DNA of 64,000 nucleotides from a virus. The stretch lies in IMG/VR virus record IMGVR_UViG_3300028822_000042, positions 1 through 64,000 of that record. One strand, written 5' to 3'. The notes below the pieces were generated by a model. That model did not search any database, was not told the origin of the DNA, and saw only the letters and a program-made list of their open reading frames with translations. Shown in pieces: positions 1,562 to 20,945 of the stretch. The translations under genes were made by a program, and so were the position numbers. Position 1 is the first letter of the stretch. Each line of letters opens with the position of its first letter.

Positions 1562-1605
1562 GTTTTTTATGTTATACTGGGGTGCCATAGATATTAGGAG
1601 GGTGA

Positions 1606-2554: not shown

Positions 2555-3084
2555 GAAATAGACTGTTTAGCCTTGTATGTAAGATAGACAAGTCTACAAG
2601 TAGATTCTTCAATAGGATCAAGAACAAACTAAATCCTTTAGGGTCAGTTAATACATTTCATCCAATGGAGTCTGAATATGTATCTTATGCTGGCACAGAC
2701 ATAAAGGTTCAGATTCTTGATCCACATCAACCTGTACGGACAGGGAACAACCCTCAGGGTCAACTGAATGGAGTCTTTGGCAATGTACAAGGTCTTTCTT
2801 TCGGTCGGCGGGACTCAAAAGAGACAGGTGGTACTTTCTCTGGCATCGTCTATGACTCAATGAGACCATTCCATCTTCTCCTGGGTCAAGAGAAGAGACT
2901 TATTCTCAGCGGAGCCAATGAGATTGGCAAAGTATGTACTCTCTATGATGGTATCATTAAGTTTGATGATTACCTAGAATGGGGAGTCAGTGTAGATGAC
3001 ATAGTAGTTGAAGTCCATATTAATTTTACTCAATTATCTCAAAAACTAGACTTAGACAAAGAGGCACCCTATGAAGCTAATTAA
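2551..3084 (+). CDS. Tail-tube-like paralogue (displaced from tail module)
   Basis: SYAGTDIK, GNVQGLSF, ANEIG and GVSVDDIV align with SFSGVDIK, GTLQGISY, ANEYG and GVSIDDIV of 29481..30155. Confidence 0.7.
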   Translation: MRNRLFSLVCKIDKSTSRFFNRIKNKLNPLGSVNTFHPMESEYVSYAGTDIKVQILDPHQPVRTGNNPQGQLNGVFGNVQGLSFGRRDSKETGGTFSGIVYDSMRPFHLLLGQEKRLILSGANEIGKVCTLYDGIIKFDDYLEWGVSVDDIVVEVHINFTQLSQKLDLDKEAPYEAN

Positions 3085-3514
3085 AATAGATCCTATGGAT
3101 CATCCTTTAAAAGAGGGAGAGTCATGGTGGGTAATTCCGCCAAATTACAAGAATTGTGAGTTTAACATTCCTCAAGGAGGTGTAGCAGTTTGTTCTGCTG
3201 GCACAGGGGACCGAAGTTTAGAAAATTTTGATTTTCAGTATGGCCGGGCGTATCAAATTGTAGATAATGATCCTCACAATGGTTGGTTAACAGTATGTTC
3301 AGCAAGATACATGGTGCGTATGCCTTACTATGTTTTTGCGAGACATTTTGATGCTGAAGCTTTTATTAAGGGCACATTTACTGTTAAGGGAAAAGAGACA
3401 AAGCCATTTGATTATAAACCTACAATTCCAGGCAAACCTAAACAGCAGTTAGAAATGTTCAATGATCAACAGCTTGGTCTTCGGCCCAAAGACGAACCTG
3501 AATGGAGACGATAG
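3071..3514 (+). CDS. Hypothetical protein
   Basis: 147-aa ORF with a GAGG SD, overlapping the upstream gene. Confidence 0.6.
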   Translation: MKLIKIDPMDHPLKEGESWWVIPPNYKNCEFNIPQGGVAVCSAGTGDRSLENFDFQYGRAYQIVDNDPHNGWLTVCSARYMVRMPYYVFARHFDAEAFIKGTFTVKGKETKPFDYKPTIPGKPKQQLEMFNDQQLGLRPKDEPEWRR

Positions 3515-4303
3515 ATGGGAGGTGAAGGTTCAGGCAAGGCTAAGGGAGATTTACTTATCCTTGATGGCCATAAAGTAGAGAATGGCAAGGTCTCTAAGAC
3601 AGACTTCTTTAACTTCCTGGCCACAGACATCTCTGACTATTCAGATGTCAAGATGACTCCTAAACAGGCCCTCAAGTTCAAGAATTCCTTTGTCCGGATG
3701 ACACATGGAGTGGGAGCAGCCATTCCTATGATCTGTGTTGGCCCTAAGTGTCCAAACAAGCTTTGTGTTTTTCATGAGACAAAGACATGGCCCCTTTCGA
3801 GGCAGTGCTTGTACGAGGCCCGAATGGTCCAGTACCTCTTTCAAGCCTACATGGAAGACCTCGGTGTTGACCCTGAGAGCCCAACAGAGCTAACTCTTGT
3901 CAATGAGCTTGTAGAGGCAGACATCCTGAGCTATAGGGCTAATCTTGGTCTCTCTGGCGCCATAGACGAAGAGGCAGCCACACTTCTAAAGACCTCAGTC
4001 ATTGAGAAAGGTGAACATCTAGCAGAGACTACTGTTGTTCACCCTCTACTTGAAGTTAAAGAGCGAGCTAACCGTACCCGCATGAGAATCCTAGAGTCTC
4101 TAGCTGCTACACGTAGAGAAAAATACAAGAAAGCAGCAGCCCTCAAGAAATCAGAAGATTCAGATGCTTCTAATTTCCTCGCCGAGCTAAGAGAGCAATT
4201 CTCCACTTCTTCCGAGAAACAGATCGATTCTCTTGATAAAATAAGAGAAGACGCTAAGAAAGTAGCAAATGATCTAATTATAGATGCTGATTGGGAGCAG
4301 TGA
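3515..4303 (+). CDS. Probable terminase small subunit (Cys-cluster protein)
   Basis: C-x4-C-x4-C...C cluster followed by helical segments and a basic LAATRREKYK motif. Size and position upstream of TerL fit TerS. Function inferred from synteny only. Confidence 0.4.
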   Translation: MGGEGSGKAKGDLLILDGHKVENGKVSKTDFFNFLATDISDYSDVKMTPKQALKFKNSFVRMTHGVGAAIPMICVGPKCPNKLCVFHETKTWPLSRQCLYEARMVQYLFQAYMEDLGVDPESPTELTLVNELVEADILSYRANLGLSGAIDEEAATLLKTSVIEKGEHLAETTVVHPLLEVKERANRTRMRILESLAATRREKYKKAAALKKSEDSDASNFLAELREQFSTSSEKQIDSLDKIREDAKKVANDLIIDADWEQ

Positions 4304-4309
4304 TGTCCA

Positions 4310-7300
4310 GTGGCAAAACTTACAGATAAAGAAGTCCAGAGATTTTTTGATGATATTAATAAATCTCCTGGAGGAGTAAAGTCTACTGAGCCAGCTTTCC
4401 AAAGATATAGAAAGCAATTCCTCAGAAATATAGACTTTAATGACATTAAGAAGTACAGACCTGAACAACTTATCAGAGGAGCACGTACTTCAGAAGAACT
4501 CTTTATAATAGGAGAATATCTTAGTAAAGAGTGGGGGTCTAATAATTGGTGGTGGCAAGAGTACCACCAACGTAGAGTTACCCTTGCTCACCTGCCAAGT
4601 CTATATGGTTCTACAATTGACAAAGCAACAGGGAAACAGAGAGGACTTTGGGGTGTTCCTGTTAAACCAGAGACCTATATTCGTTCTTCTAAGGCCGGAC
4701 CACAAAAGTTTGGTGTCAATAGAAGACTTTTTTCTAGGTTTGCCAACTGGGAACAGATAACAGGCCAACAGAATCTATTCTCTTTAACAGAGACTCCTAG
4801 TGGACCTGCTATTAGAGGTTGGAAGCCAATTAAACCACCTGTTCTTCCTTCTAATGCTCCTGCAAATGCTATTGTTTTTGATTTGGAGACCACAGGTCTT
4901 CTTGATAATGAGAACCTAAATGTTATCTCTGCAGGATACTTTGATACTGGAAAACCAGATAAAGCTCCTATAGGCAAATACGCTTCTTTCGATAAAAGCC
5001 TTAAATATGATGCGCCGATTAGAAATAAGATTATCCCTCAATGGGAAAAAGCTGTTGCTGAACTAAAACCAAAATTATTATCAGAACAACAGCTAGTAGA
5101 AGACTTTATCAAAAGAGCAGAATCTAGTTCTAAGACTCATGCCCTGATGGGCTATAACATTAAGCAGTTTGATCTGCCAGTTCTGTTCTCTTCAGCTAAG
5201 AAATATGGTCTTGAGGGTAAACTAGAAAAAGCTGTTAAACAGTCTCATATTGTTGATGTAGCTGAATATGCTCAGGCTTTTATATCTAAACAGCTAGGCG
5301 GAACAGTAGTTGGCTGGGAGCAATCAGAACTTGGATTTAAACCTTTAGGGTGGCAATTAGAGAATGTAGCAGCATCGCTTGGATATAAGAATTTAGGTGG
5401 TGCTCATGAAGCCAGAACTGATGTTGATATGACTCAGTTTGTCTGGCGAAAGCTTAAAGACACTAAGAAATGGGATGAAGCTGCTAAACAATTTGATAAA
5501 GATCTTTTATTAAAATCCATACCAAGAGCAAAAGGTTACTCTCCTGTTGTCATTAAGAAAGGCATGGAGAGAGTTAATTTTGCTGCTGAGATGCTAAAAG
5601 ACGAATCTAAGTATCTTAGATCGTTTACTCATCACTTAGAAGAACTTTATGGTAAGGGGAAGCCTACATCAACACTAGGCAAGGCTGTTAAAGGCAAAGG
5701 TCTTGGGCTTGGTAGCATAGCTAGTTATTCAGCCTCATTTGTGGGCTTGAATATGATTCTTCCAGGTAATTTCTGGCAGAATGCATTTACCTCTGTTACT
5801 TGGGAAGCAGCTAGATTAGGAGCCAAGAAAGCAGGTGTTAAAGGCTGGAAGACTTGGCTTGCAGCAGGACTTGGTTCTGCTGTCGGTAATGCTATGTGGA
5901 TGGGAGCTAGTGCTCTCTCTAGTGATCCATCAGATGTAGCAGTAACTGAGTCTGGGTTTTCAGGCAAAGATGATGCTTATAATTTCATTCAGGGCTTAGG
6001 AGAACAAGGTCTAGCTCCAGAGGTAAGACATGAATTAACAGAATTTGGTTCCGGCTGGCGCGGAAGTAGAGATCTTCCTTCTTCTCTTATGGGAGTGCCA
6101 ATAGACCCTCAGGTTTTGGCCTTCAGAAGAGATGTTATTGAAGATAAAGAAGAATTAGCAGAACTAAAACAAGACATTAAAGAAAAACAAGCTGAAGCTC
6201 AAGCTAAGCTTGGTGATTTTGATCCTTCTCAGTTAGGTCCTATATCAGGCCCTGTTGCAGGTCTAGCCAGAAATAAAAGTCTTAAAGAAGTAAATCTATC
6301 TGACTACAAATTAACAGTAGAAGATGCAGACACTATTTTCCTTAGCAGAAAAGGTCTTGCTGGTCTCTTCTCTAAAGATATTGCAGTACGTCTTTCAGGT
6401 GTAGATGCTCCTGAGGTTGCAAGTCATGCAGATGATCCTATGGAAGATGTACGTATCTGGCAGGAACAAGCTGGAGGACAATGGGCTACTGAACAGTATA
6501 AGAAGCTAGTAGAAGAACAAGATAACTTAAGACTTGTTATTGATGCGAACAACAAGACTTATGGTCGTCGTCTTGGTGTTCTAATTGGAGATGAAGGAAC
6601 AAACCTTGCTTTAGAGAGTGTTAGGAAAGGTTTAGTTGCTGCTCTTCCTTTTGGTAAGTCATCAGAAGATGTTGTTAGCCGTAGAGCAATAGCCCAAGCA
6701 GAAGAAGAAGCCAAACAGAACGAAGCTGGTATCTGGCAGTTTGCTAGATATAAGGCCATTTCTGAGGCTACTGAAGAAATTGGTCAACCAATTACTTTCA
6801 ATGTTCTTACTGAACTTACTAAAGTTGCTAGGAATCTTAATCTTGGTACTTATGGTTCATTCTTAGAATCCTTAGGCGAACAACAAAGAGAACTTACTTA
6901 TCAAGAAGCTCATACCGCTCGTCGAATTGGCCGTGTTCTCAAGAAGACACATGGCAAAGCTAGATTCTCTCAAAAATTTAGCGGCAAAGACGACAACTAT
7001 AATACTGTTGAGGGACTAAGACATGATGGAGGCTTATCAGAAGATATTCGTAAAGATTTAACTCAATTTGGTTCTGGATTCGATATATTCAAACCAGTGC
7101 TACAATATGAATCTATCAGTGAAGCTAAGGATAGATTTATTGAAGACAAGAAGAAGAGATATGCAGTAGATAAGAAGTCTAGATTCTCCGGCCGGGACGA
7201 CCAATATAACACCATTGAGGGCTTGCTTCATACAGGTATGGCTAAAGATGTCCGTCAAGCCTTAACAGAATTCGGCTCTGGTTGGGACCCTGTACGTGCT

Positions 7301-8650
7301 ATGGCTAGAGCTATTTATAAGAATCTAGATGAAGAAGAAGCACTTGATGTATTTAGAAGGAGTGATCTTTTTAAGGGAGCAGTTTCTAAAGCTCTTAAAA
7401 CTCCAGAAAAACAATTAGGTAAAGGTGTTGCTGGTTCTGTTAAAGGATATACAGCTGAAATAAAACACGGCATTGAAGGAGTCCCTACTCAGTTTGGTTT
7501 TGCTGTTAAAGAAGCAAGTAGAGGGGAAGCATTTGCAGAGCATATGGCGATAGCAAAACTAGATGAAGTAGAGCAACTATTGCTTAAGAAGAGATACAAA
7601 AACCTAGAGGATGCCATGATTGAAGCAGAGAAAAGTGCTTTGAGCAAACAAGCACATGATCTTCCCTCTCTGTATGGCACTGGTAAGGATTTTGGTCTTG
7701 ATGAAGATACGATTATCATGGAGCAATTCAAAGGCACTCCTATTAGAAATATTAATAGAGAATTGACTCCTGGTGAGATTACAGATTTAAGTCAATCAGT
7801 TCAGAGAATGCATGCTGCTGGCATTACACATGGCGACCTTCATAGAGGTAATGTCATGCTTACAGAAGAAGGAAAGATAGGAATCATAGACTTAGGAATG
7901 GCCGAACGTCTAACAGACCCCAGAATGAGTAAACATCACTGGCAAGCAGTCATGAACGATCCTGTACAGAAAGCAGCACAGAAAGAATTAGGAAGAAAGG
8001 TAGATGTTGAAGAGTTTTCTAATATGCTAGATGTAGCAAATGTACATGCTGTTGATCTTATTTCGCAAGGTGCAAAGAAAGAAGCAAGACCTTATGTACA
8101 AGTTATAAATCAATTATTAAGCACAACTGAAGCTAATTTAATTGAAGCAAAAGCCTCACAAGTGTTTCAGATGTATAAGCAAATAGGAAAACCAGCTTCT
8201 ATACCCAAGAGAGTTGGTTCTAGTAGTAAAGTTATTCCTCCTGTTCAAGATGATTATATTAGCCCTACAGCCAAGACAGATTTAAATACTTTGCCTTTTG
8301 ACAAGACTCAACCTATGACGTCTAAAATTGACGTTCAAGACAATATGCTTAATCAGAATCAGCAAGGAATCTCTTCATCACCAAATTTACCTATGGGCGA
8401 AGGTACTGGAACAGGAGGAGGTCGGATAAAGAAGAATTCTGAATCGATCAGAAGAATGAGAGCTGAAAGGAAGAAGAGTGCATACGAAGATAGAGTTGTT
8501 AATGCTTCTGATGTTAACATTCCTAAAGACTCTCAGAGAAGTAAAAGAATGAAGAGATTTAGAGAGGTTAGTCGTTCTGCTGTAGGTATAGGACATAGAT
8601 CTGCCCACAATGCAGGCAGAAAACACTCAAAATTTAGTACTGTAGTATAA
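4310..8650 (+). CDS. Polyvalent multi-enzyme protein: DEDDh 3'-5' exonuclease + thermonuclease (SNase) + Ser/Thr protein kinase, with three internal repeats
   Basis: Exo motifs DLETTG / GYNIKQFD / HEARTD. SNase motifs EDADT / RLSGVDAPE / YGR / GIW. Kinase motifs GKGVAG / FAVK / HGDLHRGN / DLG. Repeats at 5957, 6977 and 7184. Confidence 0.88.
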   Translation: MAKLTDKEVQRFFDDINKSPGGVKSTEPAFQRYRKQFLRNIDFNDIKKYRPEQLIRGARTSEELFIIGEYLSKEWGSNNWWWQEYHQRRVTLAHLPSLYGSTIDKATGKQRGLWGVPVKPETYIRSSKAGPQKFGVNRRLFSRFANWEQITGQQNLFSLTETPSGPAIRGWKPIKPPVLPSNAPANAIVFDLETTGLLDNENLNVISAGYFDTGKPDKAPIGKYASFDKSLKYDAPIRNKIIPQWEKAVAELKPKLLSEQQLVEDFIKRAESSSKTHALMGYNIKQFDLPVLFSSAKKYGLEGKLEKAVKQSHIVDVAEYAQAFISKQLGGTVVGWEQSELGFKPLGWQLENVAASLGYKNLGGAHEARTDVDMTQFVWRKLKDTKKWDEAAKQFDKDLLLKSIPRAKGYSPVVIKKGMERVNFAAEMLKDESKYLRSFTHHLEELYGKGKPTSTLGKAVKGKGLGLGSIASYSASFVGLNMILPGNFWQNAFTSVTWEAARLGAKKAGVKGWKTWLAAGLGSAVGNAMWMGASALSSDPSDVAVTESGFSGKDDAYNFIQGLGEQGLAPEVRHELTEFGSGWRGSRDLPSSLMGVPIDPQVLAFRRDVIEDKEELAELKQDIKEKQAEAQAKLGDFDPSQLGPISGPVAGLARNKSLKEVNLSDYKLTVEDADTIFLSRKGLAGLFSKDIAVRLSGVDAPEVASHADDPMEDVRIWQEQAGGQWATEQYKKLVEEQDNLRLVIDANNKTYGRRLGVLIGDEGTNLALESVRKGLVAALPFGKSSEDVVSRRAIAQAEEEAKQNEAGIWQFARYKAISEATEEIGQPITFNVLTELTKVARNLNLGTYGSFLESLGEQQRELTYQEAHTARRIGRVLKKTHGKARFSQKFSGKDDNYNTVEGLRHDGGLSEDIRKDLTQFGSGFDIFKPVLQYESISEAKDRFIEDKKKRYAVDKKSRFSGRDDQYNTIEGLLHTGMAKDVRQALTEFGSGWDPVRAMARAIYKNLDEEEALDVFRRSDLFKGAVSKALKTPEKQLGKGVAGSVKGYTAEIKHGIEGVPTQFGFAVKEASRGEAFAEHMAIAKLDEVEQLLLKKRYKNLEDAMIEAEKSALSKQAHDLPSLYGTGKDFGLDEDTIIMEQFKGTPIRNINRELTPGEITDLSQSVQRMHAAGITHGDLHRGNVMLTEEGKIGIIDLGMAERLTDPRMSKHHWQAVMNDPVQKAAQKELGRKVDVEEFSNMLDVANVHAVDLISQGAKKEARPYVQVINQLLSTTEANLIEAKASQVFQMYKQIGKPASIPKRVGSSSKVIPPVQDDYISPTAKTDLNTLPFDKTQPMTSKIDVQDNMLNQNQQGISSSPNLPMGEGTGTGGGRIKKNSESIRRMRAERKKSAYEDRVVNASDVNIPKDSQRSKRMKRFREVSRSAVGIGHRSAHNAGRKHSKFSTVV
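5957..7285 (+). repeat. Three copies of a 34-35 aa protein repeat (5957-6058, 6977-7081, 7184-7285)
   Basis: FSGKDDAYNFIQGLGEQGLAPEVRHELTEFGSGW / FSGKDDNYNTVEGLRHDGGLSEDIRKDLTQFGSGF / FSGRDDQYNTIEGLLHTGMAKDVRQALTEFGSGW. Confidence 0.95.
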
Positions 8651-8682
8651 TATAAGAGGACAACCTTTAAGGAGGTATAAAT

Positions 8683-9069
8683 ATGAGTTTTTTTGGTAGG
8701 GCAATAGGTGGCGGTATAGCTGGCGGCCTATTGACTGGTGACCTTGGTGGTATAGCTGGTGGTGCTGCTGCTGGTGGACTTGGTGGATGGGCAATCGGCA
8801 AGACACTTGCCGACAGAACCACTGGCATGTTTACAGGTGGCATGGGAATGATAGGAGATGCTGCACTGAGGGCAACTTCTACTATTGGCAAACGTGGAGC
8901 ATTTAATGCTGCAAGAAGAATGGATAGAGGCATAACTAGAGCAGCTAGCTTCTTGGGAAAGAATCAATTAACGACAAACAAAGTTGGAGGTGCTGCTATG
9001 ACTGCATTAGGAACAGGAGCAGGCATACATATTGGTTCTTCTGTCTTAGCGTCTAACAGGAGGTACTAG
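8683..9069 (+). CDS. Glycine-zipper small protein (paralogue 1)
   Basis: SD AAGGAGGT; GxxxG-rich; end-to-end similarity to 9072..9461. Confidence 0.75.
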   Translation: MSFFGRAIGGGIAGGLLTGDLGGIAGGAAAGGLGGWAIGKTLADRTTGMFTGGMGMIGDAALRATSTIGKRGAFNAARRMDRGITRAASFLGKNQLTTNKVGGAAMTALGTGAGIHIGSSVLASNRRY

Positions 9070-9071
9070 TA

Positions 9072-9461
9072 ATGAATTTTTTTAGAAATGCATTAATGGG
9101 TGGTGCTATTGGTGGTTTAGCCACAGGTGATCTCGGTGGTGTAGCCGGTGGTGCTTTAGCTGGTAGTGCTGGCGTTTGGGGTGCGCGTAAACTGTTAAGT
9201 AATAAGAATGCTTCTGGAATGGGAGCTGCTCTCCTTGAGAGAGGGGGATATGGTCTTACTGCAGCGGCTTCTACTATTGGCAACCGTAAGCTGTTTGATG
9301 CTTCAATGAAGATGAAAGGCATGGCAGGTAGAGCTGCTGGTTATTTAGGACAGAACTCTGCTATGACAAATAAGGTTGGAGGATATGCCTTTGCAGGATT
9401 AGGTGCTATGGCTGCCGGGAATATCGGTTCTTCTGTTCTTAGGTCTAATGGAGGTTACTAG
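9072..9461 (+). CDS. Glycine-zipper small protein (paralogue 2)
   Basis: SD AGGAGGT; shares TGDLGG.AGG, STIG.R, RAA..LG.N, TNKVGG and IGSSVL.SN with paralogue 1. Confidence 0.75.
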   Translation: MNFFRNALMGGAIGGLATGDLGGVAGGALAGSAGVWGARKLLSNKNASGMGAALLERGGYGLTAAASTIGNRKLFDASMKMKGMAGRAAGYLGQNSAMTNKVGGYAFAGLGAMAAGNIGSSVLRSNGGY

Positions 9462-9464
9462 TCT

Positions 9465-10259: not shown

Positions 10260-10328
10260 ATCTATATCTTAATAAATACTTATGTTAGGTTTGTAATTGT
10301 TTTTTGTTCGATATCAAGGAGAATAAGT

Positions 10329-13300
10329 TTGGATAATGAGATTGATAATTTAGAGGATTTAAGAAAATTAGATCTGCCGTTTGATGTAGATGAAGTATCG
10401 TCTCAGTGTCATCAATGTGTAAGAGATCAGCTAGAAAAGTACAAAAAACAGGTAGATGAGTCAGGTAAATCTGTTGCAAATAGATTTATAGTTCCTTGTC
10501 ATGGCATCAAGAAAACAATTATAGATCCTGTTAAAGAAGCGACTCTTACAGATAAACAGATAGAAACATTAAAAGCAGTAAATGATGTTGTCAGTTTTGC
10601 AGGTCATTATCTCAAGTTACCTGATAGTAGTTTATGGAATGCTAGATGGTACCAAGAGCAAGTTCTTAAATGCACTTCAAAGCGTAAAGTTTTAAGAATT
10701 GGCCGACGATGTTTAGTTCCTGGTTCTATGGTCCTGATGGCCAATGGCAAATGGAAGCCTATTGAAGATATTAGAGTTGGAGAATATGTTGCTTCTCGAA
10801 ACGCAAAAAACCAGTTAGTCTCAAAGAAAGTTCTTTATGAACATGATAATGGAATTAAAGATGTCTTTAATATTAAGATATCTAATGGAATGGAGATCAC
10901 ATGCACTTCAAACCATCCATTGCTGGCACTAGAGACACTAGAGTTTGGTAAAGGAGTTAGAAAGGTTTGGAAGTCTTTAGAAGATGGTTTATCTGTTGGA
11001 ACTAAAATTGTTGTTGCCAAACATTATGACCGCTGGGGTGAAAAACATAATCCTAGTTTGATGAAGTTGTTTGGTTATATGTTGACAGATGGTTATTTTG
11101 GCAAACCAGGTCAAACTCCAAAATTTACAAATAATAACAGACAAATGGTTTCAGAGGTTCAATGTCTTGCCAAAGAACTTTTTGATTATGACTGTTCTAT
11201 CCGGCCTAAAGGAAATGGATTCGATATCTATCTTACAGATGGAGATCATAGTTCTATTAATAAATTCTCTGAGACACTTAAGACGTTTGGGCTTCACGGT
11301 GTAAAGTCTGCCAGAAAACATATCTCAGATTTGTTTTTTGATTATGATAAACAAAGTCAAATGGCTTTAGTCAATCGCATGTTTTCTGGTGATGGTGGTG
11401 TTTCATTACACAACAAGAGAGAAGAACCTAGAGCAGAAGTCTTCTTAGTCTCATCTAGTAAAGAAATAATTAGACAGGTTCAACTTATCCTTCGCAAAAT
11501 TAATGTTGAATCATTCATTTCTCATGACAATAGACAGATTGATGTTATGAGCTGTGGAGTCATTACTGAATCTGACTCTTGGAAACTCCGTATATCTAGA
11601 GCAGAAAGTATTGAGAATTTCTTTGCAAATGTTGGTCTTGTTTACGGCAAAGAAGATGTTTCAAACAAAGCAATATCTATTGCCAATTCAATCAAGAAGA
11701 GAAGAAGATCAGGAAGTAAGCAGTTTAGACATGAGACGATTAAGTCTATTGAGCATATAGGCGAATCACAAACATATGATATTGAAGTAGAAGATACTCA
11801 TAATTTTATTGTAGACAATATCGTATCTCATAATACCGGAAAGACAGACTTGGTCTGTGTTGAGATCTGTTATTACCTTTTTACTAGAAGAAACATAAAA
11901 CTTGTAGTTGTTGGTCCCCAGAAATCTCATACAGAAGAGATTATTAATCGTGTCAGAGCCTTTATTTCTAATAATCCCATGATGAAGGATTCTGTGGTTA
12001 GAGATGTTTCTGCTCCATATTATGAGATAAAACTTCGTAATGGTTCTCGCTTAAGGGGATTTGCTGCTGGAACTAAAGGCAAACAGCAGGGCGTATCTGT
12101 TCGTGGTCAAGATGCGGATAGAATCTACATTGAGGAGATGGATTACGTTGATGAGAATGCTATTCAGGGAGCTATATTCCCTATCATGATGACGAATCCA
12201 GATACTGCTCTTATCGGATTCTCAACTCCTTCAGGTTTCAGAAGTCCTTATTATAACCTCTGTGAAGAGAGCCCTCAGTATAAAGAGTTTCATTTTACAT
12301 ACAAAGTACTTCCATGGTGGAGAAATGTTGAGTTAGAGAGAAATTCATTCACAGAGGAACAATGGACTCATGAGTATCTAGCAGAGTGGGGTACTTCAGA
12401 GTCTGGTGTTTATAAGCCAGAATATATTGATAGAGCCATAACTGAATACAATTATGATGATATGGTTCGTAATTCAGTCTGGAAATATACTATTGGTACA
12501 GATTGGAATGAGAAATTTGGTACTGAGATTGTCGTTCTTGGTTACAATACTCTAACTACAATGTTTCAAGTAGTTGAGTCAGTTCATATTGAAAGATCAG
12601 AGTTTACACAGCTTGCAGGAGTATCAAAACTTATAGAAATGAACCGTAAATGGAGACCTTCTTTCATTTATATAGATGCCGGTAACGGTTCAACTAATTA
12701 TGAACTTCTTAGGAAAAAAGCCTATGATAATAGTAGATTTGATGGAGATAGAGACACTGCACGTCTATTAAGCATCCTTAAAAAATATGATGCTGGTGCT
12801 GCTTTAGAGGTTAGAGATCCTGTTTCACAGCAGAAACACAAAACTCCAGCTAAACCTTTTATGGTTAATTCCTCTGTGCGCATGTTTGAGCAAGGTAAAA
12901 TTAGAATCTCTAGTCGCGATAAAGTCTTAGAAAAACAGCTCAGAAGTTATATTATTGAGAGATATACACCTACAAAGACTCCTGTTTATGGTCTAGATGA
13001 TCCAAAATTGGGAGATCATAAGCTAGATGCACTAAATCTTTCTATTGTTGCTTTTCAGCTAGAATTTAATGATTTACATGCTACTAAAGTCATAACAGAT
13101 ATAGGCGTATCTGTTGACCCAAGAACGATATCTAAGAAATCTTCTAACCCTAGAGAAGAGTCATTTCAGCATAAGAGACCAGAACCAAGAGACTTAAATG
13201 GAGGAATTAGAACTCCTCTAGAAGAACGAGTATTTGCTCATACTCCTGGCAGGATAGATAATGGTCTTGAAGGTATTAGAACCAATCGTCCTGGATGGTC

Positions 13301-13397
13301 TACAGATGAAGAAGACAAGCATATACAGAAATTTTTACAGAAGAGACGTTCAAGGTTTAGACTTCGCTCTGGTCGACCAAGAAGAACAAATATTTAG
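10329..13397 (+). CDS. terL: Terminase large subunit interrupted by an intein
   Basis: Walker A GRR|TGKT split by the intein, RGQDADRIYIEEMDY Walker B, FSTP motif, YTIGTDWN RNase-H-like nuclease, DHKLDAL. TTG start with AGGAG SD. Confidence 0.93.
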   Translation: MDNEIDNLEDLRKLDLPFDVDEVSSQCHQCVRDQLEKYKKQVDESGKSVANRFIVPCHGIKKTIIDPVKEATLTDKQIETLKAVNDVVSFAGHYLKLPDSSLWNARWYQEQVLKCTSKRKVLRIGRRCLVPGSMVLMANGKWKPIEDIRVGEYVASRNAKNQLVSKKVLYEHDNGIKDVFNIKISNGMEITCTSNHPLLALETLEFGKGVRKVWKSLEDGLSVGTKIVVAKHYDRWGEKHNPSLMKLFGYMLTDGYFGKPGQTPKFTNNNRQMVSEVQCLAKELFDYDCSIRPKGNGFDIYLTDGDHSSINKFSETLKTFGLHGVKSARKHISDLFFDYDKQSQMALVNRMFSGDGGVSLHNKREEPRAEVFLVSSSKEIIRQVQLILRKINVESFISHDNRQIDVMSCGVITESDSWKLRISRAESIENFFANVGLVYGKEDVSNKAISIANSIKKRRRSGSKQFRHETIKSIEHIGESQTYDIEVEDTHNFIVDNIVSHNTGKTDLVCVEICYYLFTRRNIKLVVVGPQKSHTEEIINRVRAFISNNPMMKDSVVRDVSAPYYEIKLRNGSRLRGFAAGTKGKQQGVSVRGQDADRIYIEEMDYVDENAIQGAIFPIMMTNPDTALIGFSTPSGFRSPYYNLCEESPQYKEFHFTYKVLPWWRNVELERNSFTEEQWTHEYLAEWGTSESGVYKPEYIDRAITEYNYDDMVRNSVWKYTIGTDWNEKFGTEIVVLGYNTLTTMFQVVESVHIERSEFTQLAGVSKLIEMNRKWRPSFIYIDAGNGSTNYELLRKKAYDNSRFDGDRDTARLLSILKKYDAGAALEVRDPVSQQKHKTPAKPFMVNSSVRMFEQGKIRISSRDKVLEKQLRSYIIERYTPTKTPVYGLDDPKLGDHKLDALNLSIVAFQLEFNDLHATKVITDIGVSVDPRTISKKSSNPREESFQHKRPEPRDLNGGIRTPLEERVFAHTPGRIDNGLEGIRTNRPGWSTDEEDKHIQKFLQKRRSRFRLRSGRPRRTNI
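10710..11834 (+). mobile_element. Intein (375 aa) with LAGLIDADG homing endonuclease
   Basis: Begins CLVPGSMV, block B TSNHP, LAGLIDADG-like FGYMLTDG and RMFSGDG, ends YDIEVEDTHNF...SHN followed by +1 Thr. Confidence 0.93.
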
Positions 13398-14678: not shown

Positions 14679-16652
14679 ATGTCTACAAGTGATGAGTATA
14701 AAAGTACTAAATCTTCAGATGCAGTTTCTGACAAGACAGAAGAACCACAAGTTAATTCCGCTAATCCATTCTCTAGTCAGGACTATCATCAAATTGTTTC
14801 TGCTTTTGAGAAACAATCTACTGATTGGGCAGAAGAAGACTATGCTTTAGCATCTCATTACAAAGATACTTACTCTACTAGAAATTTCTCTGAGAGAGTA
14901 AAAGAGCAGATGGCTCACTATCCAGGTCTTCATCAACCCGCCACTGGTGTGCCTGATGAAGATCCGTATAAAACAAATGCTGAAAAACAAGCAGAAAGAA
15001 GGCAGAATTTTTGGACAGATGCAATGAGCAGTCCAGATGCCTTTATGAATGGTCTGCGCTCTAGAGAACAAGACTTTGATTATACTACTGTATTTGGTTC
15101 TGACGCATCAGCTAAAACTAAAGCAGAGAATGTAGGAAAAATTCTTACAGAATGCATTCCTTGCTTTGGTCGATTACTAGATGCTGATGGATTAGTGCCA
15201 GATGGAGACCTTTTAGAAGTACATGCTTTAAATATAAATCTAAGAAAAGATCTTATTTCAGACACAAAGAAGCTTTTAAATAATCCTGGTTCGTATTTGG
15301 ACATTTGTGAGCTTCTCAATTTGCTATCTCATCAATGTGTTCAGGATCTTTTTGCTATATTGGCTCTGCTGACTCAGTATTTAGCTAAGTTGAACCTAGA
15401 TATCAAATTTAATTTTGACTTTATAGAAAATCTTGTTGGAGCTATTTTAAGCCCATTCCTTGATGCTCTTAGTCAGTGGTTAGATAAATGGATACAGCTA
15501 ATTATTGAACCTCTAGTTTGTGTAGTTGACCACATTAATGAAGTTATAGTTACTTCGCAAACTATGAAGATTCCTCTCTCTTCTGCTGGTATTGGCATTG
15601 ATGCTGATCTTGGCGTACAAGATGGAGTTTTCAGCAAACAAGATTCAGCTTCTACAAAGAAAAGACAACATAAGACTAAAAAGTCTAAATGGTCTGACTC
15701 AGAGATGGATAGATTTAGCGATCTCCCTCCTGGGCACTATACTCCAAGAAGACCTACTGTTCCAGATGAAGAAATACAGATGTCTGCTACAGAGATTAAG
15801 GAGTCTTGGAATCCAAGTATGTCTGAGCAGCAGAGAGAAGAAACAAATCAAAAGTGGGAAGAAATCAATAAACAGAGAAAAGACAAGAAACTTAGCTATA
15901 CTTCTGACATTTATAAAGAAAGAAGAGATGGGACTAGATGGAGTAAGGATAATGTTCCTAATTCTGAGAAGTTTAGCGCTGGTTTTCAGTTTGGTGATGA
16001 ATACCATCCACCTGAAAAACAAAGCCTTCCTAAGACAGCAGACAGCTACTTTGACACCGGACCATTAACAAACTCAATTGTTCAATTGAGAAATATTCTT
16101 CAAGCTGGGATTCAGTATGTAAGAGATTGGTTTATCTATATTACACAGATGGTATACGATCTTCTTGGTACTGACTTCGGTTGGATGAAAAACAAGACAG
16201 GTTCTAGTTTTCTAAAATCAGATCTTATTAAGATGATTTCTCTTGTGAAGGCAATTATTCAAGCAGTTTCTAAAAATGGACTTAGATGTGGAATAAATAC
16301 TAATTTAGATCAAGATCAAGTAAAGTTTATTCTAGAAGACACCTTAAACAAATTCTCTCCTACTAAGTTTGAAGTTATGGAGAATGGAGATATTAAGGTT
16401 ATACCTTCTGGAGGAAGTTTGCCTGATACTAAAGATACATCTGATGCTGTGCAAGCTCAGATAGAAGAACAAGATAAAATAGATATGGGAGAAGGGATAG
16501 GTAAAGTAACAGATAAAAAGACAGAAGAGACTCTGCAGGATTCTGTTAAATCAGGTATCATAGTTAAAAATTGCTTAAGAGACTTAACCTCTGATGAGGC
16601 AGCCAGAGCAAGGGAGTGGATCTTAGAATATGAGAGGAGATCAAATGGCTGA
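14679..16652 (+). CDS. Hypothetical virion protein (helical, Cys-containing)
   Basis: 657 aa, SD AGGAG, amphipathic helices around a disordered middle; directly upstream of the portal. Confidence 0.6.
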   Translation: MSTSDEYKSTKSSDAVSDKTEEPQVNSANPFSSQDYHQIVSAFEKQSTDWAEEDYALASHYKDTYSTRNFSERVKEQMAHYPGLHQPATGVPDEDPYKTNAEKQAERRQNFWTDAMSSPDAFMNGLRSREQDFDYTTVFGSDASAKTKAENVGKILTECIPCFGRLLDADGLVPDGDLLEVHALNINLRKDLISDTKKLLNNPGSYLDICELLNLLSHQCVQDLFAILALLTQYLAKLNLDIKFNFDFIENLVGAILSPFLDALSQWLDKWIQLIIEPLVCVVDHINEVIVTSQTMKIPLSSAGIGIDADLGVQDGVFSKQDSASTKKRQHKTKKSKWSDSEMDRFSDLPPGHYTPRRPTVPDEEIQMSATEIKESWNPSMSEQQREETNQKWEEINKQRKDKKLSYTSDIYKERRDGTRWSKDNVPNSEKFSAGFQFGDEYHPPEKQSLPKTADSYFDTGPLTNSIVQLRNILQAGIQYVRDWFIYITQMVYDLLGTDFGWMKNKTGSSFLKSDLIKMISLVKAIIQAVSKNGLRCGINTNLDQDQVKFILEDTLNKFSPTKFEVMENGDIKVIPSGGSLPDTKDTSDAVQAQIEEQDKIDMGEGIGKVTDKKTEETLQDSVKSGIIVKNCLRDLTSDEAARAREWILEYERRSNG

Positions 16653-18804
16653 AACAACAAAATTAACACCAGCTAAAAATACTGGTTTCTCTACTCCTGA
16701 GAAGAAATCCATCATCCCTGCTACTCTTCCTGCGCCCACAAAGGTGTATACCACTAATATTGGTAGAGGAAGAGCACCTACACTCAGATGGGAAGTACCT
16801 GAGTGGGATCTTGTTGAGACAGGTAGAATCTTAGATACAGAGTCAATTGTTAGAAGAGCTTTTAGAGTAAAGAAGAACCTTTTCCTTAAAGAAGGATATG
16901 AATTTACAGGTTCTAATCTAGACAGAGTAGCTTATGTAAAGAAGAGACTTCAACAGATAGAGGTAGCTTCTGGCATACCATTTCCTATTTTAATCTCTCA
17001 GACAATCTCTTCGCTGATAAGATGCGCTAATGCATTTTGGGTTAAAGTCAGAAAGACAGAAGCTTCTGGTGGCAAAGTACGTACTGTTGGTAATAAGAAA
17101 CTAAAACCTGTTGCAGGTTATTTCTTACTTCCTGCTGAAACAGTCAGATTCAAAAGAGATGAATACGGAAAAATTGTTAAGTATCAACAGGAGATATATG
17201 GAAAAGTTGCTAAGGAGTTTAGACCTGAAGATGTAATTCATTTCTATTTAGACAAGAGAGAAGGATATTCTGTAGGGACTCCTATCCTTACTCCAGTTAA
17301 GGATGACATTCGTGCTCTTCGACGAATAGAAGAAAACTTAGAGCTTCTTGTATATCAGCATCTCTTTCCGTTGTTTCATTATCAGGTAGGAACAGAAGAT
17401 GCTCCAGCAGCTATTTTTCCTGATGGCACATCTGAGATTGATGTTGTTCAGACTAAAGTTGCTGAGATGCCCTCAGATGGATGTTGGGTTACTCCCGAGC
17501 GGCATAAAATCACTCCATTACAGGCAGGAAGTTCTCCTGTAGCTGTAGACAAGGTCATAGATCACTTTAAGCAGAGAATCTATACTGGTATTGGTGTTTC
17601 ATCGGTAGACATGGGTGAAGGTGGAACTGCAAATAGATCCACAGCCCAAACAATGTCAAGAAACCTAGTTGATGACACTAAGGCTGACCAGAAAGAATTC
17701 GGTGCTCAATTCTACAGTAAAGTTATTGTAGAGCTTCTAAAAGAATCTACATTCTCTCAGGCTACTCTTTTAGATGAACCAAACAGAGTATACCTGAAGT
17801 TCAAAGAGATAGATTTTGAAGCTAGACAGGCAAAAGAGAATCATCTTGTAGACATCTTCATTAAGAACGCAATCACTCACTCTGAGATGAGACAGATGAT
17901 GGGTCTTGAACCATTTGCTGGTGATGGATGGCCTACAGGCACTAAGAAGTCTCAGATGTTCTCTAAAGGAGATGGGGATTGGTCTCAGACAAATTATGGT
18001 CTTATTGAGAGAGATAAGGTTATACTTCAGTCTCTTGATGAACCAGGCACAGATGCTTCTAAAGCAGAAGCCGCTTCACGTACAAAAGCTACTAGTGCAA
18101 AAGCAGCAGGTGGTAGTTCTGTCAATAATAAAAACCAGCCTTCAAATCAGCATGGTACTCGCTCCAGTACAAAAATTAACAAAGATAATTTAGAAAGTTT
18201 AATAGGATACAGTACTCCTATACATGATATCTTTAATAAACTTAGAGAGTCAATAGCTTCTGATATCAGGTCTAGCGGAACCAAACTTAAAGTTATAGAT
18301 TTTAATCTTGATGTAGCTTTTTCTGATGCAAAGAAAACTCTAGTCAGAAAGTCTAAGCTCGCCTACAGAGCTGGTCTTCGTGAGTCTGGGGCAGATATAT
18401 TCTCTGTAAATTATAATAGCGCGTACACTAAGATTCAAAAACATATAGAGAAATATATCTTGAAACTCAAAGAGGATTTATATAATCAGATCAAAAGACA
18501 TACAATTAGAGATATGAGATTAAAGCAAGAGGATGCTGTGTTTGTAGAGATGATATTTGATGCTCTAAGACATAGAACAGATATGATTGACAAGAGTGAA
18601 CCTATGAGAGCATATAACTTTGGTCTTGCATCTGGGTTTAGGTCTTTAGGTAATATGAATATGAGGTCTGTCCCTACAAGTGATTCTGCATGTAACATAT
18701 GCAAAGAGCAGTTTTTGATATACAAAGAGTCGGATGCTATAATTTACGAAGAGTTACCGCCTCTGCATCCTCACTGCAAATGTAAAATGAAGGTAACCAA
18801 TTAA
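16645..18804 (+). CDS. Portal protein fused to a C-terminal MuF (SPP1 gp7-like) domain
   Basis: Portal-like core (NAFWVKVR, FRPEDVIHF, GTPIL, GVSSVDMGEGGTANRSTA, AITHSEMRQMMGLEP) plus a MuF-type tail (DKSEPMRAYNFG...CNIC...PPLHPHCKC). Start moved to ATG 16645, which has an AGGAG SD. Confidence 0.85.
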   Translation: MAETTKLTPAKNTGFSTPEKKSIIPATLPAPTKVYTTNIGRGRAPTLRWEVPEWDLVETGRILDTESIVRRAFRVKKNLFLKEGYEFTGSNLDRVAYVKKRLQQIEVASGIPFPILISQTISSLIRCANAFWVKVRKTEASGGKVRTVGNKKLKPVAGYFLLPAETVRFKRDEYGKIVKYQQEIYGKVAKEFRPEDVIHFYLDKREGYSVGTPILTPVKDDIRALRRIEENLELLVYQHLFPLFHYQVGTEDAPAAIFPDGTSEIDVVQTKVAEMPSDGCWVTPERHKITPLQAGSSPVAVDKVIDHFKQRIYTGIGVSSVDMGEGGTANRSTAQTMSRNLVDDTKADQKEFGAQFYSKVIVELLKESTFSQATLLDEPNRVYLKFKEIDFEARQAKENHLVDIFIKNAITHSEMRQMMGLEPFAGDGWPTGTKKSQMFSKGDGDWSQTNYGLIERDKVILQSLDEPGTDASKAEAASRTKATSAKAAGGSSVNNKNQPSNQHGTRSSTKINKDNLESLIGYSTPIHDIFNKLRESIASDIRSSGTKLKVIDFNLDVAFSDAKKTLVRKSKLAYRAGLRESGADIFSVNYNSAYTKIQKHIEKYILKLKEDLYNQIKRHTIRDMRLKQEDAVFVEMIFDALRHRTDMIDKSEPMRAYNFGLASGFRSLGNMNMRSVPTSDSACNICKEQFLIYKESDAIIYEELPPLHPHCKCKMKVTN

Positions 18805-18821: not shown

Positions 18822-20945
18822 ATGGAACCATTGTTTAACGATTATTGTAAGGTACAACCTCTGTCAGACAATCAAGTGTCTGAAATGAAGGATTTCTTTT
18901 CAAGTCCTGAAGATAAAGGCTTAGAGGTTACCTTAGAGGCGACTCACTCTGGGTTTATGAATGATAACCTTAGATTCTATATTCCATCAAGAATGAGAGA
19001 TGGAGCTAAGACATTCACACAAAGAAGGAAACCAGCAAAAATCTTAAAGCATCATGATGCACAGTCTGACCCTGTAGGTATCATTGTTGATGCTGAATAT
19101 ATAGATACAACTCCAGAATATTTGCAGAAGAATAAAGATGTCCAAATCCTTAATGATAGCAGTTTCCCAATGAAGAAACAGATTTCTGCGGCTAAGAGAC
19201 TAATGAAATCTGGAGTAATGGATTCTGAAGACTGGAAAGGACTTGGGTATGTTAAACTTAAAGCAGTAGTACTTGACGAGAGGACCATAAAGCAGGTACA
19301 AACTGGATTGTTTGATGCTGTCTCAACTTCTTTTAGTTCTCCAGGCCATGTTTATTGTAATGTCTGTGGCCAGAATCTAGTAACTGACGGATTCTGTGAA
19401 CATGAGCCTGGAACTATATATAAAGACAATGAAGAAGACTCTGATGATCCAGGTGTTGTTTGTGGAATGATACCTGGAGTTCATAATTACCAAGAGTGTA
19501 GTTTTGTTGTCATGGATGGCGACCCACTCACTGGTATAAAGATTGGATTCGAGGATTCTCTTAAAACTTATGACATTCCAGTTGAGGACTGGAGAAGCAA
19601 CTCATTTGCAAAAGAGACTAAATTTGTATATGAGTTTAAAGACTTTAAGGAGGCAAATAACATGGATCCGACAAAACTTTCTGATGCTCAGAAAGAAGTC
19701 TTTGAGGTGATTAAGAAGCTTCGTCCTGAACTGGATGATAATGCTATCTCTGAGTTGGCTGTTAAAGTTAGTCAATTAAGACAAGAAGATGGTAAATATC
19801 CTTATCAGGAAGACGCCGATATCACTAATGAGCTAGCAATCCAGTATGCAGTTGACAACTTTGAGACCAAAGAACAAGAAATTAATGCTGATAGCATTGT
19901 TGATGAAATGCAGATAGAGCTTAAGAAGATGCTTGATGAAGGTGTCATCAGTGAAGAGATTTGGAAGGTGGCTGATGCTCAGCTAAGTGCTGAGGAGAGA
20001 AAAAAGCTACCTAGTTCTGCTTTCTGTGGTCCAGATAGGTCATTTCCAGTTCCAGACTGTGCACATGTAACTGCAGCGAGAAGACTTATTGGTAGATATG
20101 AAGGTCCTGGAGACAAGTCCAAAATACGTGCATGCATTAACAGAAAAGCTAAGGCGCTTGGATGTGATGATGAGAAAGAAGATAGCGCTGTGCCTTCAAA
20201 AAATACAACAGATGACAACAAAGATGCATTGTTTACATTGCCCACATGTGAACAGCTTAAAGACCTAGAGAACAAAGATGCTCAGACATTATTCGCTATG
20301 GCTGAGTCTGAATTGATTTCTAGAGATTTGAAAGTACAAAGAGATTGTAGTAAATGTGCAGAGTCTGCTGATCTTCTTGATAAAGCAAAACAAGAGTTGA
20401 AAGACAGTAAAGAAGAAATAAATGACCTTAAAACAACACTTAAGGTTTTAAGAGTCGAAATGAAGAATCAGATGGAAGACTATTTCCGCCAAGTTGATGA
20501 TTATGTTGCTCTTGGTTCTGAGCTTACAACTGTAAAATCAGAAAAACTTGCACTTATTGGTGTTCTTAGTGGAAAGTATGATACTCTTGAGAAAGGAATT
20601 GATGCACTAAAAGATGCTGATTTGACAAAAGAAGAACCTGTTCTGATGGATAACTTCAAAATTGATGATGTAATGACCAAACTTAATGATGGTCTTGCAC
20701 AGCAAAATCCAGAAGATACTGTGGATGATCCTACTGTCAACATAGATAGTGATAATTCACAATTTCCTGATGGTCTTTCAGGTCCAGCGGTGGCAGCAAT
20801 CGAAAACATTAGAGATTTCATACATTCCAATGAGATTGGACGTGCCAAGAATCTTTATGCTAGAATGATTGCTAGGAAAGTATTTGATGAGAAACAAGTA
20901 CCATTTGATAGTCTTCAGCAAAAAAGTCAGACCCTTGCTGAATAA
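18822..20945 (+). CDS. Prohead protease-scaffold fusion
   Basis: ATHSG..N.N.RFY, KHHD...PVG, AVSTSF, CNVCG...CEH, ECSFV in the N-terminal half; acidic coiled-coil C-terminal half; between portal and capsid genes. Confidence 0.75.
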   Translation: MEPLFNDYCKVQPLSDNQVSEMKDFFSSPEDKGLEVTLEATHSGFMNDNLRFYIPSRMRDGAKTFTQRRKPAKILKHHDAQSDPVGIIVDAEYIDTTPEYLQKNKDVQILNDSSFPMKKQISAAKRLMKSGVMDSEDWKGLGYVKLKAVVLDERTIKQVQTGLFDAVSTSFSSPGHVYCNVCGQNLVTDGFCEHEPGTIYKDNEEDSDDPGVVCGMIPGVHNYQECSFVVMDGDPLTGIKIGFEDSLKTYDIPVEDWRSNSFAKETKFVYEFKDFKEANNMDPTKLSDAQKEVFEVIKKLRPELDDNAISELAVKVSQLRQEDGKYPYQEDADITNELAIQYAVDNFETKEQEINADSIVDEMQIELKKMLDEGVISEEIWKVADAQLSAEERKKLPSSAFCGPDRSFPVPDCAHVTAARRLIGRYEGPGDKSKIRACINRKAKALGCDDEKEDSAVPSKNTTDDNKDALFTLPTCEQLKDLENKDAQTLFAMAESELISRDLKVQRDCSKCAESADLLDKAKQELKDSKEEINDLKTTLKVLRVEMKNQMEDYFRQVDDYVALGSELTTVKSEKLALIGVLSGKYDTLEKGIDALKDADLTKEEPVLMDNFKIDDVMTKLNDGLAQQNPEDTVDDPTVNIDSDNSQFPDGLSGPAVAAIENIRDFIHSNEIGRAKNLYARMIARKVFDEKQVPFDSLQQKSQTLAE
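19662..20945 (+). CDS. Putative nested scaffold protein from an internal in-frame start
   Basis: AAGGAGG at 19647-19653, 8 nt before in-frame ATG 19662, at the protease/scaffold boundary. Confidence 0.55.
   Translation: MDPTKLSDAQKEVFEVIKKLRPELDDNAISELAVKVSQLRQEDGKYPYQEDADITNELAIQYAVDNFETKEQEINADSIVDEMQIELKKMLDEGVISEEIWKVADAQLSAEERKKLPSSAFCGPDRSFPVPDCAHVTAARRLIGRYEGPGDKSKIRACINRKAKALGCDDEKEDSAVPSKNTTDDNKDALFTLPTCEQLKDLENKDAQTLFAMAESELISRDLKVQRDCSKCAESADLLDKAKQELKDSKEEINDLKTTLKVLRVEMKNQMEDYFRQVDDYVALGSELTTVKSEKLALIGVLSGKYDTLEKGIDALKDADLTKEEPVLMDNFKIDDVMTKLNDGLAQQNPEDTVDDPTVNIDSDNSQFPDGLSGPAVAAIENIRDFIHSNEIGRAKNLYARMIARKVFDEKQVPFDSLQQKSQTLAE

Follow-up and report, generated by a model that had tools for sequence, protein, structure and literature searches.

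Two nucleases and a kinase-like module joined by a repeated junction motif in a protein of an uncultivated myovirus: a candidate packaged, multi-enzyme cargo

The open reading frame at 4310-8650 and its enzyme modules

The window analysed here is the first 64 kb (64,000 nucleotides) of the 86.5-kb IMG/VR virus record IMGVR_UViG_3300028822_000042, and its open reading frame (ORF) at 4310..8650 (+ strand) codes for the protein described below, P0001, of 1446 amino acids (aa). The ORF has a GTG start seven bases past the preceding stop and its own stop at 8648-8650; its start codon is considered sound because the N-terminus of the protein is kept in an alignment of 16 homologues. All long ORFs of the window lie on the + strand, with the genes from 1142 to 13871 being tightly packed. 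The gene order here is an Hsp20-like gene, a weak spanin-like gene, a 262-aa gene, ORF 4310-8650, three small genes and the large terminase, beyond which follow the portal, a protease/scaffold homologue, the major capsid protein and the tail sheath, and, further downstream, baseplate genes and giant lysin-bearing proteins. P0001 carries a DnaQ-type exonuclease, a staphylococcal-type nuclease (SNase) and a kinase-like module in one chain, and is a member of a large "beads-on-a-string" family found in uncultivated myoviruses related to Bacillus phage 0305phi8-36.

Three enzyme domains with intact catalytic sets had been proposed for this ORF by a sequence-only reading, and these are borne out by hidden Markov models (HMMs), predicted folds and residues invariant in homologues, with every catalytic motif that it listed being found in place. 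The HMM domain scan that it suggested places the SNase family above its Pfam cut-off and three kinase-like families just above theirs, and detects the exonuclease via PHROG. AlphaFold2 models of aa 1-600 and 446-1290 have mean predicted local distance difference test (pLDDT) values of 73.1 and 73.3, respectively, with the three enzyme modules at about 85-90.

The protein begins with a domain of helices followed by strands (aa 1-180; 4310..4849, +), which is shared by 16 of the 163 family proteins introduced in the next section. The DEDDh (DnaQ-type) 3'-5' exonuclease module follows (aa 181-445; 4850..5644, +), with the motifs FDLETTG (190-196), YNIKQFD (282-288) and HEARTD (366-371). These provide the complete Exo I DxE (D191/E193), Exo II Nx2-3(F/Y)D (N283/D288) and Exo III Hx4D (H366/D371) signatures, all six residues being invariant in the alignment of 16 homologues. 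The module matches PHROG_192, "DNA polymerase exonuclease subunit" (E-value 1.7e-13), and scores below the Pfam cut-offs for RNase_T (19.2 versus 22 bits), RNase_H_2 (17.5 versus 24) and the PolB exonuclease (12.5 versus 23), while RNase_T is matched by five of 33 sampled relatives (best E-value 6e-26). The predicted structure has the RNase H-like DnaQ fold (pLDDT of about 85 over aa 25-445), and Foldseek matches of the N-terminal model include a DnaQ domain (8h2f, template modelling (TM) score 0.75), a TREX1 homologue (9mrd, TM 0.63) and RNase T. The aa 1-600 model also aligns with whole chains of RB69 gp43, a family-B polymerase, over approximately 360-420 columns, given without residue ranges and with a TM by target of only about 0.15.

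Between the exonuclease and the SNase lies a Gly/Ala-rich segment (aa 446-545; 5645..5944, +) with three predicted helices at 468-535 (pLDDT 60-69). The sequence-only reading had described a Gly/Ala hydrophobic segment at about aa 460-540; the composition is real (G 16%, A 15%), but the hydrophobicity is weak, the maximum Kyte-Doolittle 19-residue mean being 1.25. A protein atlas search with aa 446-600 gave a best score of 0.84 and no named family.

The SNase module (aa 600-885, Pfam core 693-810; 6107..6964, +) scores 46.9 bits against PF00565 over aa 693-810, for a gathering cut-off of 21. It has the motifs EDADT (671-675), VRLSGVDAPE (693-702) and TYGRR (750-754), its catalytic set comprising D672, D674, R694, D699, E702, Y751 and R753, and of these D672, D674, R694, D699, E702 and R753 are invariant in an alignment of 22 homologues. 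The model superimposes on staphylococcal nuclease 1stn with a TM of 0.81 at 24% identity and has the same fold, of the oligonucleotide/oligosaccharide-binding type. Calcium-ligand and catalytic positions also match the Staphylococcus aureus thermonuclease, with R694, D699, E702 and R753 being what we take to be the counterparts of R35, D40, E43 and R87. Unlike that enzyme, the P0001 nuclease is an internal module of approximately 290 aa in a 1446-aa phage protein and has no signal peptide. Its core is flanked by extensions which are themselves conserved, the one before it in 50 of 163 family proteins and the one after it in 55.

The kinase-like module (aa 1009-1290; 7334..8179, +) has the motifs GKGVAG (1037-1042), AVK (1065-1067), HGDLHRGN (1174-1181) and IDLG (1193-1196). 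It therefore possesses the features of the protein-kinase-like superfamily, namely a glycine loop, the ATP-anchoring Lys (K1067), the helix-C Glu (E1107), the HxD...N loop (H1174/D1176/N1181) and the DxG motif (D1194); K1067, N1181 and D1194 are invariant and D1176 and E1107 at least 90% conserved among 22 aligned homologues. The sequence-only reading called this domain a protein kinase. A kinase-like module with intact motifs is indeed present, but on its own the sequence fits atypical families best and its match to Ser/Thr kinases is partial. P0001 lies just over the Pfam cut-offs for APH, ABC1 and Kdo, misses the gathering score of the Hanks-type Pkinase family PF00069 (26.7 versus 31.7 bits), and among NCBIfam models has Bud32 in first place, far under its cut-off. 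The predicted fold matches PknA/PknB, and a family profile aligns with the Ser/Thr kinases CDPK1, DAPK1, MEKK2 and StkP (E-value of about 1e-13) over only some 160 positions, from the glycine loop to the DFG motif; beyond this point, where the alignment to solved kinases ends, the model has four more helices (aa 1204-1289). Proteins are a probable substrate class of the module.

The phage T7 Ser/Thr kinase gp0.7 is a precedent for a phage kinase that phosphorylates host machinery and shares the catalytic-loop signature D.H.GN, with a marginal pairwise match to P0001 (29% identity over 56 aa at the catalytic loop, E-value 0.006 for a single comparison). Unlike P0001, it is an early product made in the cell and has no nuclease fusion. 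A kinase clade has also been described among polyvalent proteins, occurring in (pro)phages of Verrucomicrobia/Chlamydia and Bacteroidetes (Iyer et al., 2017; PMC5512222). According to the passages of that paper on the clade, its members lack the usual C-terminal kinase subdomain, a point to compare with the end of the P0001 alignment after the DFG motif, and have an insert between the catalytic His and Asp. P0001 has HGD, with the two residues only two positions apart, and is placed outside the clade as described there because it has no such insert.

The chain ends with a basic, Ser-rich tail (aa 1291-1446; 8180..8647, +), the basic character of which had been recognized in the sequence-only reading and amounts to a net charge of +15 over aa 1271-1446. 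Its extreme end forms a conserved peptide (aa 1405-1446, ...AVGIGHRSAHNAGRKHSKF...; 8522..8647, +), recognized by family comparison.

The junction motif and the protein family

The modules of P0001 are separated by three copies of a conserved motif of approximately 45 aa, FSGKDDxYNTIEGLxHGGxA...R...TDFGSGW. Sequence comparison places copy 1 at aa 546-599 (5945..6106, +), copy 2 at aa 886-940 (6965..7129, +) and copy 3 at aa 954-1008 (7169..7333, +). The last two are only about 19 aa apart by their HMM boundaries, a spacing that looks like an empty module slot. Seventeen residues are identical in all three copies, while the mean column identity at the DNA level is 76% and an invariant Ser is coded by TCA, AGC and TCC. 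As the copies differ at synonymous sites, selection is considered to act on the peptide. The pLDDT is below 50 over the motif in both AlphaFold2 models, copy 1 included, which would suit a linear, exposed element better than a folded domain. Scans of P0001 with Pfam and NCBIfam gave no model that spans the motif. The motif, the membrane-helix-like segments often found before it and the C-terminal peptide are the most unusual features of the protein, and had been missed in the sequence-only reading.

All 31 proteins of the first homology search contain the motif, in one to six copies each. A profile built from the three window copies alone matched 472 representatives among 1.84 billion at E-values of 1e-3 or less, 306 of them at 1e-10 or less and 75 at 1e-30 or less. 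The best 150 of these 472 matches have two to seven copies each and range from 382 to 2454 aa. Combining the 31 proteins with 132 new ones from the best 150 gave a family sample of 163 proteins, which is biased towards high-scoring, multi-copy members because of how it was drawn. Within it, one motif copy occurs in three proteins, two copies in 63, three in 54, four in 34, five in four, six in four and seven in one. Over the 452 copies present, conservation is 93% for the Asn, 85% for the Ile, 83% for the Glu, 95% and 97% for the two Gly, 95% for the Arg and 87% for the Thr, and the core ends with Phe (100%), Gly (98%), Ser (99%) and Gly (90%) followed by an aromatic residue. There are two subtypes, a His-Gly-Gly form and a Pro-Glu-Lys/Arg-Gly form. 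Outside the motif, the family proteins are just 20-30% identical.

The enzyme modules are about 200-300 aa each, strung together, with the median internal module of the sample at 228 aa. Iterative searches seeded with pieces of P0001 found the exonuclease in 94 of the 163 proteins, near the N-terminus, the SNase in 58, the kinase in 115, near the C-terminus and as the commonest module, and the hydrophobic segment of P0001 type in 16. All three enzymes occur together in 29 proteins and none of them in 15. A Pfam and PHROG census covered 33 of the 132 new proteins (every fourth). Pfam families found were ABC1 (8), SNase (7), RNase_T (5), Pkinase (4) and DnaJ (2), and PHROG added a Cas4-type exonuclease (2) and "CRISPR/Cas associated" (4); several family members match "DNA polymerase" PHROGs. 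Most modules of the family have no match to any known family. An intein (Intein_splicing with LAGLIDADG_3) is present in one of the 33. No embedded peptidase domain was detected by Pfam in P0001 or in these 33 relatives.

A hydrophobic stretch often precedes the motif. Of 450 copies, 142 show a Kyte-Doolittle 19-residue mean of 1.0 or more within the preceding 30 residues, and 41 show 1.6 or more, the segments resembling a membrane helix preceded by basic residues. The enrichment is position-specific, being 22% at an offset of 10 aa upstream as against 0-4% at the 30 other offsets examined. Such segments occur in 81 of the 163 proteins. Among 64 proteins with both exonuclease and kinase, there is no hydrophobic helix between the two in 36, one in 21 and two in seven. 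The segment at 446-545 is the P0001 equivalent of this pre-motif helix, in a weaker form, and a homologous segment stands directly before the motif in a minimal relative of 455 aa.

The C-terminal peptide is a feature of the closer relatives of P0001. Its basic consensus, ...AVGIGHRxAHNAGRKHSxF, is present in 27 of the 163 proteins including P0001, and in 26 of them it lies 15 aa or less from the C-terminus. A complex prediction with the major capsid protein, the protease domain (aa 1-250) and motif copy 3 was run without controls and gave a score of 0.00, which speaks neither for nor against binding.

The family appears to be confined to uncultivated phages as far as the databases searched extend. 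GenBank phage records gave no megablast match to the gene, no tblastn match to the protein at 1e-5 and no match to the double-motif region at E-values up to 1. A motif pattern scan of 185,579 species genomes yielded no confirmed hit, which is weak evidence of absence because the two patterns used are narrower than the variation of the family. There is one clear relative in a viral structure library, a protein of 1342 aa from an uncultured phage, which bears just the name "SNase-like". The article texts searched contain no description of the motif or family, including by exact-string search for four pieces of the motif.

The genomic slot and its neighbours

The position of the ORF was compared in 20 IMG/VR loci found by means of the motif; several are near-duplicates, leaving about 13 distinct. 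A terminase homologue lies downstream of the motif ORF in 20 of 20, and a homologue of the 262-aa gene lies upstream in all 16 that have upstream sequence, whereas the other four begin no more than 381 bases from the ORF. In these loci the motif ORF alone carries exonuclease, nuclease and kinase modules, and its size at the slot runs from 339 aa (motif and kinase) to 2085 aa. The 455-aa relative is encoded in the close relative L005, whose portal is 78% identical, and consists of the hydrophobic segment, the motif, the kinase and the C-terminal peptide. The comparison of domain content at the same locus suggested in the sequence-only reading thus reveals cassette-like module variation at one fixed locus, a pattern typical of conflict proteins. 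The earlier placing of the gene among packaging rather than replication genes also holds, as it sits in a late lysis, packaging and head block and is never among replication genes in the 20 loci. The earlier interpretation as a virion-packaged effector is supported in part, in its enzyme modules, gene position and module variation, with packaging itself a prediction.

The upstream neighbour (3515..4303, +; 262 aa) is a homologue of 0305phi8-36 gp112 by profile comparison; a protein atlas search with it gave weak leads only, to small terminase subunits and YonG. An Hsp20-type small heat-shock gene (1142-1561, +) heads the tightly packed late block and is found at the same place in eight related loci, including L005, L008, L011 (two copies), L016, L017 and L020. 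It is followed by the spanin-like gene (1606-1992, +), a weak match in the domain scan. Directly after the ORF are two genes at 8683-9069 (128 aa) and 9072-9461 (129 aa), a paralogue-like tandem with Gly/Ala-rich hydrophobic C-termini and no Pfam or PHROG match.

The large terminase (10329..13397, +; 1022 aa), recognized by domain scan and in the related loci, has an N-terminal extension of about 480 aa with a weak DNA-primase PHROG match at aa 136-359. Terminases of the related loci are 612-680 aa, 1061-1073 aa or 1454 aa long, and L009, L011 and L017 have a separate ORF of 184-194 aa which matches ORF 10329-13397 and lies upstream of the gp112-like gene. Between terminase and portal is a conserved gene (14679-16652; 657 aa) with a sub-threshold match to the DNA mimic Ocr at aa 545-604 (E-value 6.7e-4, 20.5 versus 25 bits). 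The portal protein (16630..18804, +) was identified by domain scan and comparison with cultured phages, and the prohead protease/scaffold homologue (18822..20945, +) by the match of its N-terminal 234 aa to 0305phi8-36 gp123; the capsid gene is at 22395-23654. Downstream of the tail sheath, the adjacent genes 30226-31158 and 31158-32051 both match PHROG_9206, "major head protein", a label that may be wrong. There is also a 2151-aa protein (42053-48508), probably a tail-borne lysin or tape-measure-like, with two endolysin-like regions, matching PHROG_894 (aa 499-619) and PHROG_20474 (aa 1849-2035). A link through PHROG_8809, matched by this protein and by six of the 33 sampled family members, was dropped, as BLAST, phmmer and jackhmmer found no similarity to the 163 family proteins.

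Bacillus phage 0305phi8-36 and its kin, Acinetobacter phage ME3 and Moorella phage MTATph1 come closest among cultured phages, judged by their portal proteins (29-34% identity). The slot from gp112 to terminase contains four genes in 0305phi8-36, and the products of three of them (gp113, gp114 and gp116) are annotated as virion proteins by mass spectrometry; the comparative paper on this phage does not mention gp112-gp116 by name. A profile comparison of ten conserved window genes flanking ORF 4310-8650 with 0305phi8-36 gp108-gp119 gave two matches, one of them to gp112 (probability 99.3) and the other a short C-terminal match of a 264-aa protein to gp115 (probability 90.3). The ME3 slot has a head-completion-like gene and two hypothetical genes, with endolysins just upstream. 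The ME3 homologue of gp112 (L023, NC_041884.1, 4078-5373) is 431 aa long and annotated as an RNA (guanine-N1-)-methyltransferase, which suggests either a fusion or a doubtful label.

Packaged cargo and other possible roles

Polyvalent proteins of phages and conjugative elements are mosaic in domain content, and for those that contain nuclease and kinase domains both packaging and injection have been predicted (Iyer et al., 2017; PMC5512222). P0001 resembles them in having disparate catalytic domains in one polypeptide, encoded by a terminase-portal phage in the context of virion genes, and it agrees with their description in its three catalytic modules and in its place between the gp112-like gene and terminase, upstream of portal, protease and capsid. 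There are also differences. Embedded peptidase domains are proposed in that paper for the processing of polyvalent proteins, and none was detected in P0001; a junction motif that recurs behind a hydrophobic helix is not mentioned in the passages describing polyvalent proteins, and the word "transmembrane" does not occur in the main text.

The reading favoured here, tentatively and at rather less than an even chance, is that P0001 is a multi-enzyme cargo of the polyvalent type which is made late, loaded into the head, cut at or near its motifs and delivered with the DNA. The protein would be produced together with the head genes and then loaded into the prohead, with the motif copies or the C-terminal peptide possibly serving as address labels. 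Cleavage in or beside the motifs would be autocatalytic or the work of the prohead protease, whose gene lies 10 kb downstream, and the protein would leave the capsid along with the DNA. Released modules could then be tethered at the host membrane by their hydrophobic helices. The nucleases would be directed at nucleic acid of the host or of competitors, and the kinase-like module would phosphorylate host targets. The considerations in favour are the locus inside the packaging and head block, the positional precedent of 0305phi8-36, the presence of a prohead protease homologue, the conserved terminal peptide, the cassette-like variation at the slot and the helix counts between exonuclease and kinase. 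Regarding the last of these, a single helix between the two enzymes, as seen in 21 of 64 proteins, is a poor fit with a fixed membrane topology of an uncut protein. With a cut chain, a lone helix separating two enzymes that both depend on the cytoplasm is understandable, as each upstream module would keep a C-terminal anchor.

Internal proteins of phage T4 bear a capsid-targeting sequence, encapsulin cargo proteins have cargo-loading peptides, and the HK97 protease has a C-terminal capsid-targeting tail. Like encapsulin cargo and the HK97 protease, P0001 would be a cargo enzyme with a short conserved peptide at its C-terminus in a system with an HK97-fold shell; the family has this peptide in only 27 of its 163 sampled members, and the comparison is drawn as an analogy only. 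In the giant phage SPN3US, non-structural proteins loaded into the head in large amounts are cut by the phage prohead protease and are expected to enter the cell (PMC10052503). The phage described here likewise encodes a prohead protease homologue. The SPN3US substrates, as presented in that paper, differ from P0001 in that they lose N-terminal propeptides at short motifs and are separate gene products rather than a chain of swappable enzymes. No sequence similarity of P0001 to giant-phage head or ejection proteins was found.

A bolder form of this idea, which we regard as unlikely though worth stating, takes the motif and its upstream helix as a new processing-and-loading signal of a true polyprotein, whose enzymes would be delivered separately into the next host, each with a C-terminal membrane anchor. 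A polyprotein of swappable enzymes would be loaded in the head and cut at each junction by the prohead protease or, alternatively, by self-cleavage at the near-invariant Asn or at Gly-Ser. If so, the motif could be transferred between proteins as a tag that directs cargo into phage capsids and frees it from them.

A number of observations weigh against P0001 being packaged. In the 86.5-kb record, both the motif and the C-terminal peptide are restricted to this one reading frame, and therefore no label is shared with the known head proteins; the record itself is about 45% complete by CheckV. The cultured phages searched carry neither motif nor protein, and therefore no virion proteome applies. 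The 0305phi8-36 precedent is itself imperfect, since gp112 is not listed as a virion protein and profile comparison detected no homologue of the virion proteins gp113, gp114 and gp116 in the slot of this window. A promoter and terminator scan of positions 1-14000 found 20 promoter-like sites against a shuffle mean of 33.8, and because this is no better than shuffles the timing of expression is taken from gene order alone. The hydrophobic segment of P0001 is weak, as noted. Staphylococcal-type nucleases are classically calcium-dependent and extracellular, and storing an unspecific endonuclease and an exonuclease beside the genome would require some form of latency.

The main rival, a serious one that we rate as only somewhat less likely, is that the protein is not packaged at all and works inside the infected cell, where its hydrophobic helices would anchor it in the inner membrane. 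In that position it might degrade host DNA for nucleotide salvage, the DNA of superinfecting phages on entry, or DNA at lysis, while the kinase-like module retunes host proteins. The motif would be either a flexible linker between modules or a processing site recognized by a protease of the cell or the phage. Membrane-helix-like segments in half of the family (81 of 163), modules that are mostly nucleases, the classical action of staphylococcal-type nucleases outside the cytoplasm and a gene position just downstream of lysis-type genes (the weak spanin-like gene at 1606-1992, and the endolysins at the matching place in ME3) would all agree with this. It is less easily reconciled with the single helix of 21 of 64 proteins, which in an uncut chain would leave two metal- or ATP-dependent modules facing different sides of the membrane, with the slot between the gp112-like gene and terminase, within the head/packaging block and common to all 20 loci, and with a conserved peptide at the extreme C-terminus that resembles a docking label. 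The staphylococcal-type nuclease chemistry, suited to an extracellular milieu, and the location within the structural gene block might point to a virion-borne extracellular enzyme, displayed or released, that cuts biofilm-matrix or lysate DNA on the way to the host. That role is quite improbable, given that the commonest module (115 of 163) is kinase-like and needs ATP, and that no similarity to tail, fibre or decoration proteins was found, ten large window proteins giving no BLAST match to the family at E-values of 1e-4 or less.

It is also improbable that P0001 is a replication or repair accessory, the N-terminal part of which would descend from a family-B DNA polymerase and act as a separate proofreading subunit, with nuclease and kinase added for DNA processing. 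The PHROG_192 annotation, the alignment of the aa 1-600 model with RB69 polymerase chains (at its low TM by target) and the "DNA polymerase" PHROGs of several family members can be cited for such an origin, but no polymerase domain is attached to P0001 in Pfam or PHROG scans, the gene is never among replication genes in the 20 loci, and the exonuclease is dispensable at the locus, being absent from 69 of 163 family proteins and from L005, which has just the hydrophobic segment, motif and kinase. As for the motif, it could in principle be a DNA-level recombination scar that enables module shuffling and is without function at the peptide level. Relatives do differ in their shuffled modules, and the two copies set back to back about 19 aa apart do look like an emptied slot. 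What makes this explanation very hard to sustain is that the 17 invariant residues are encoded by different codons, at a mean DNA column identity of 76%, and that residue conservation is near 100% over 452 copies in proteins otherwise so divergent.

Multi-enzyme phage proteins thought to enter with the genome are known only by comparative genomics, and their loading and release are largely obscure. The present family offers a handle on both, with a conserved junction motif, often accompanied by a helix, in at least 472 clusters, at one locus and with one to six or more modules. Even if the protein is not packaged, the family would still represent many uncharted arrays of nucleases and kinases, tethered to membranes, in large phages that are uncultivated. 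Should the motif act as a cleavage or docking signal, cargo loading and release would become directly testable, and the motif may be of use as a tag for packing foreign proteins into capsids.

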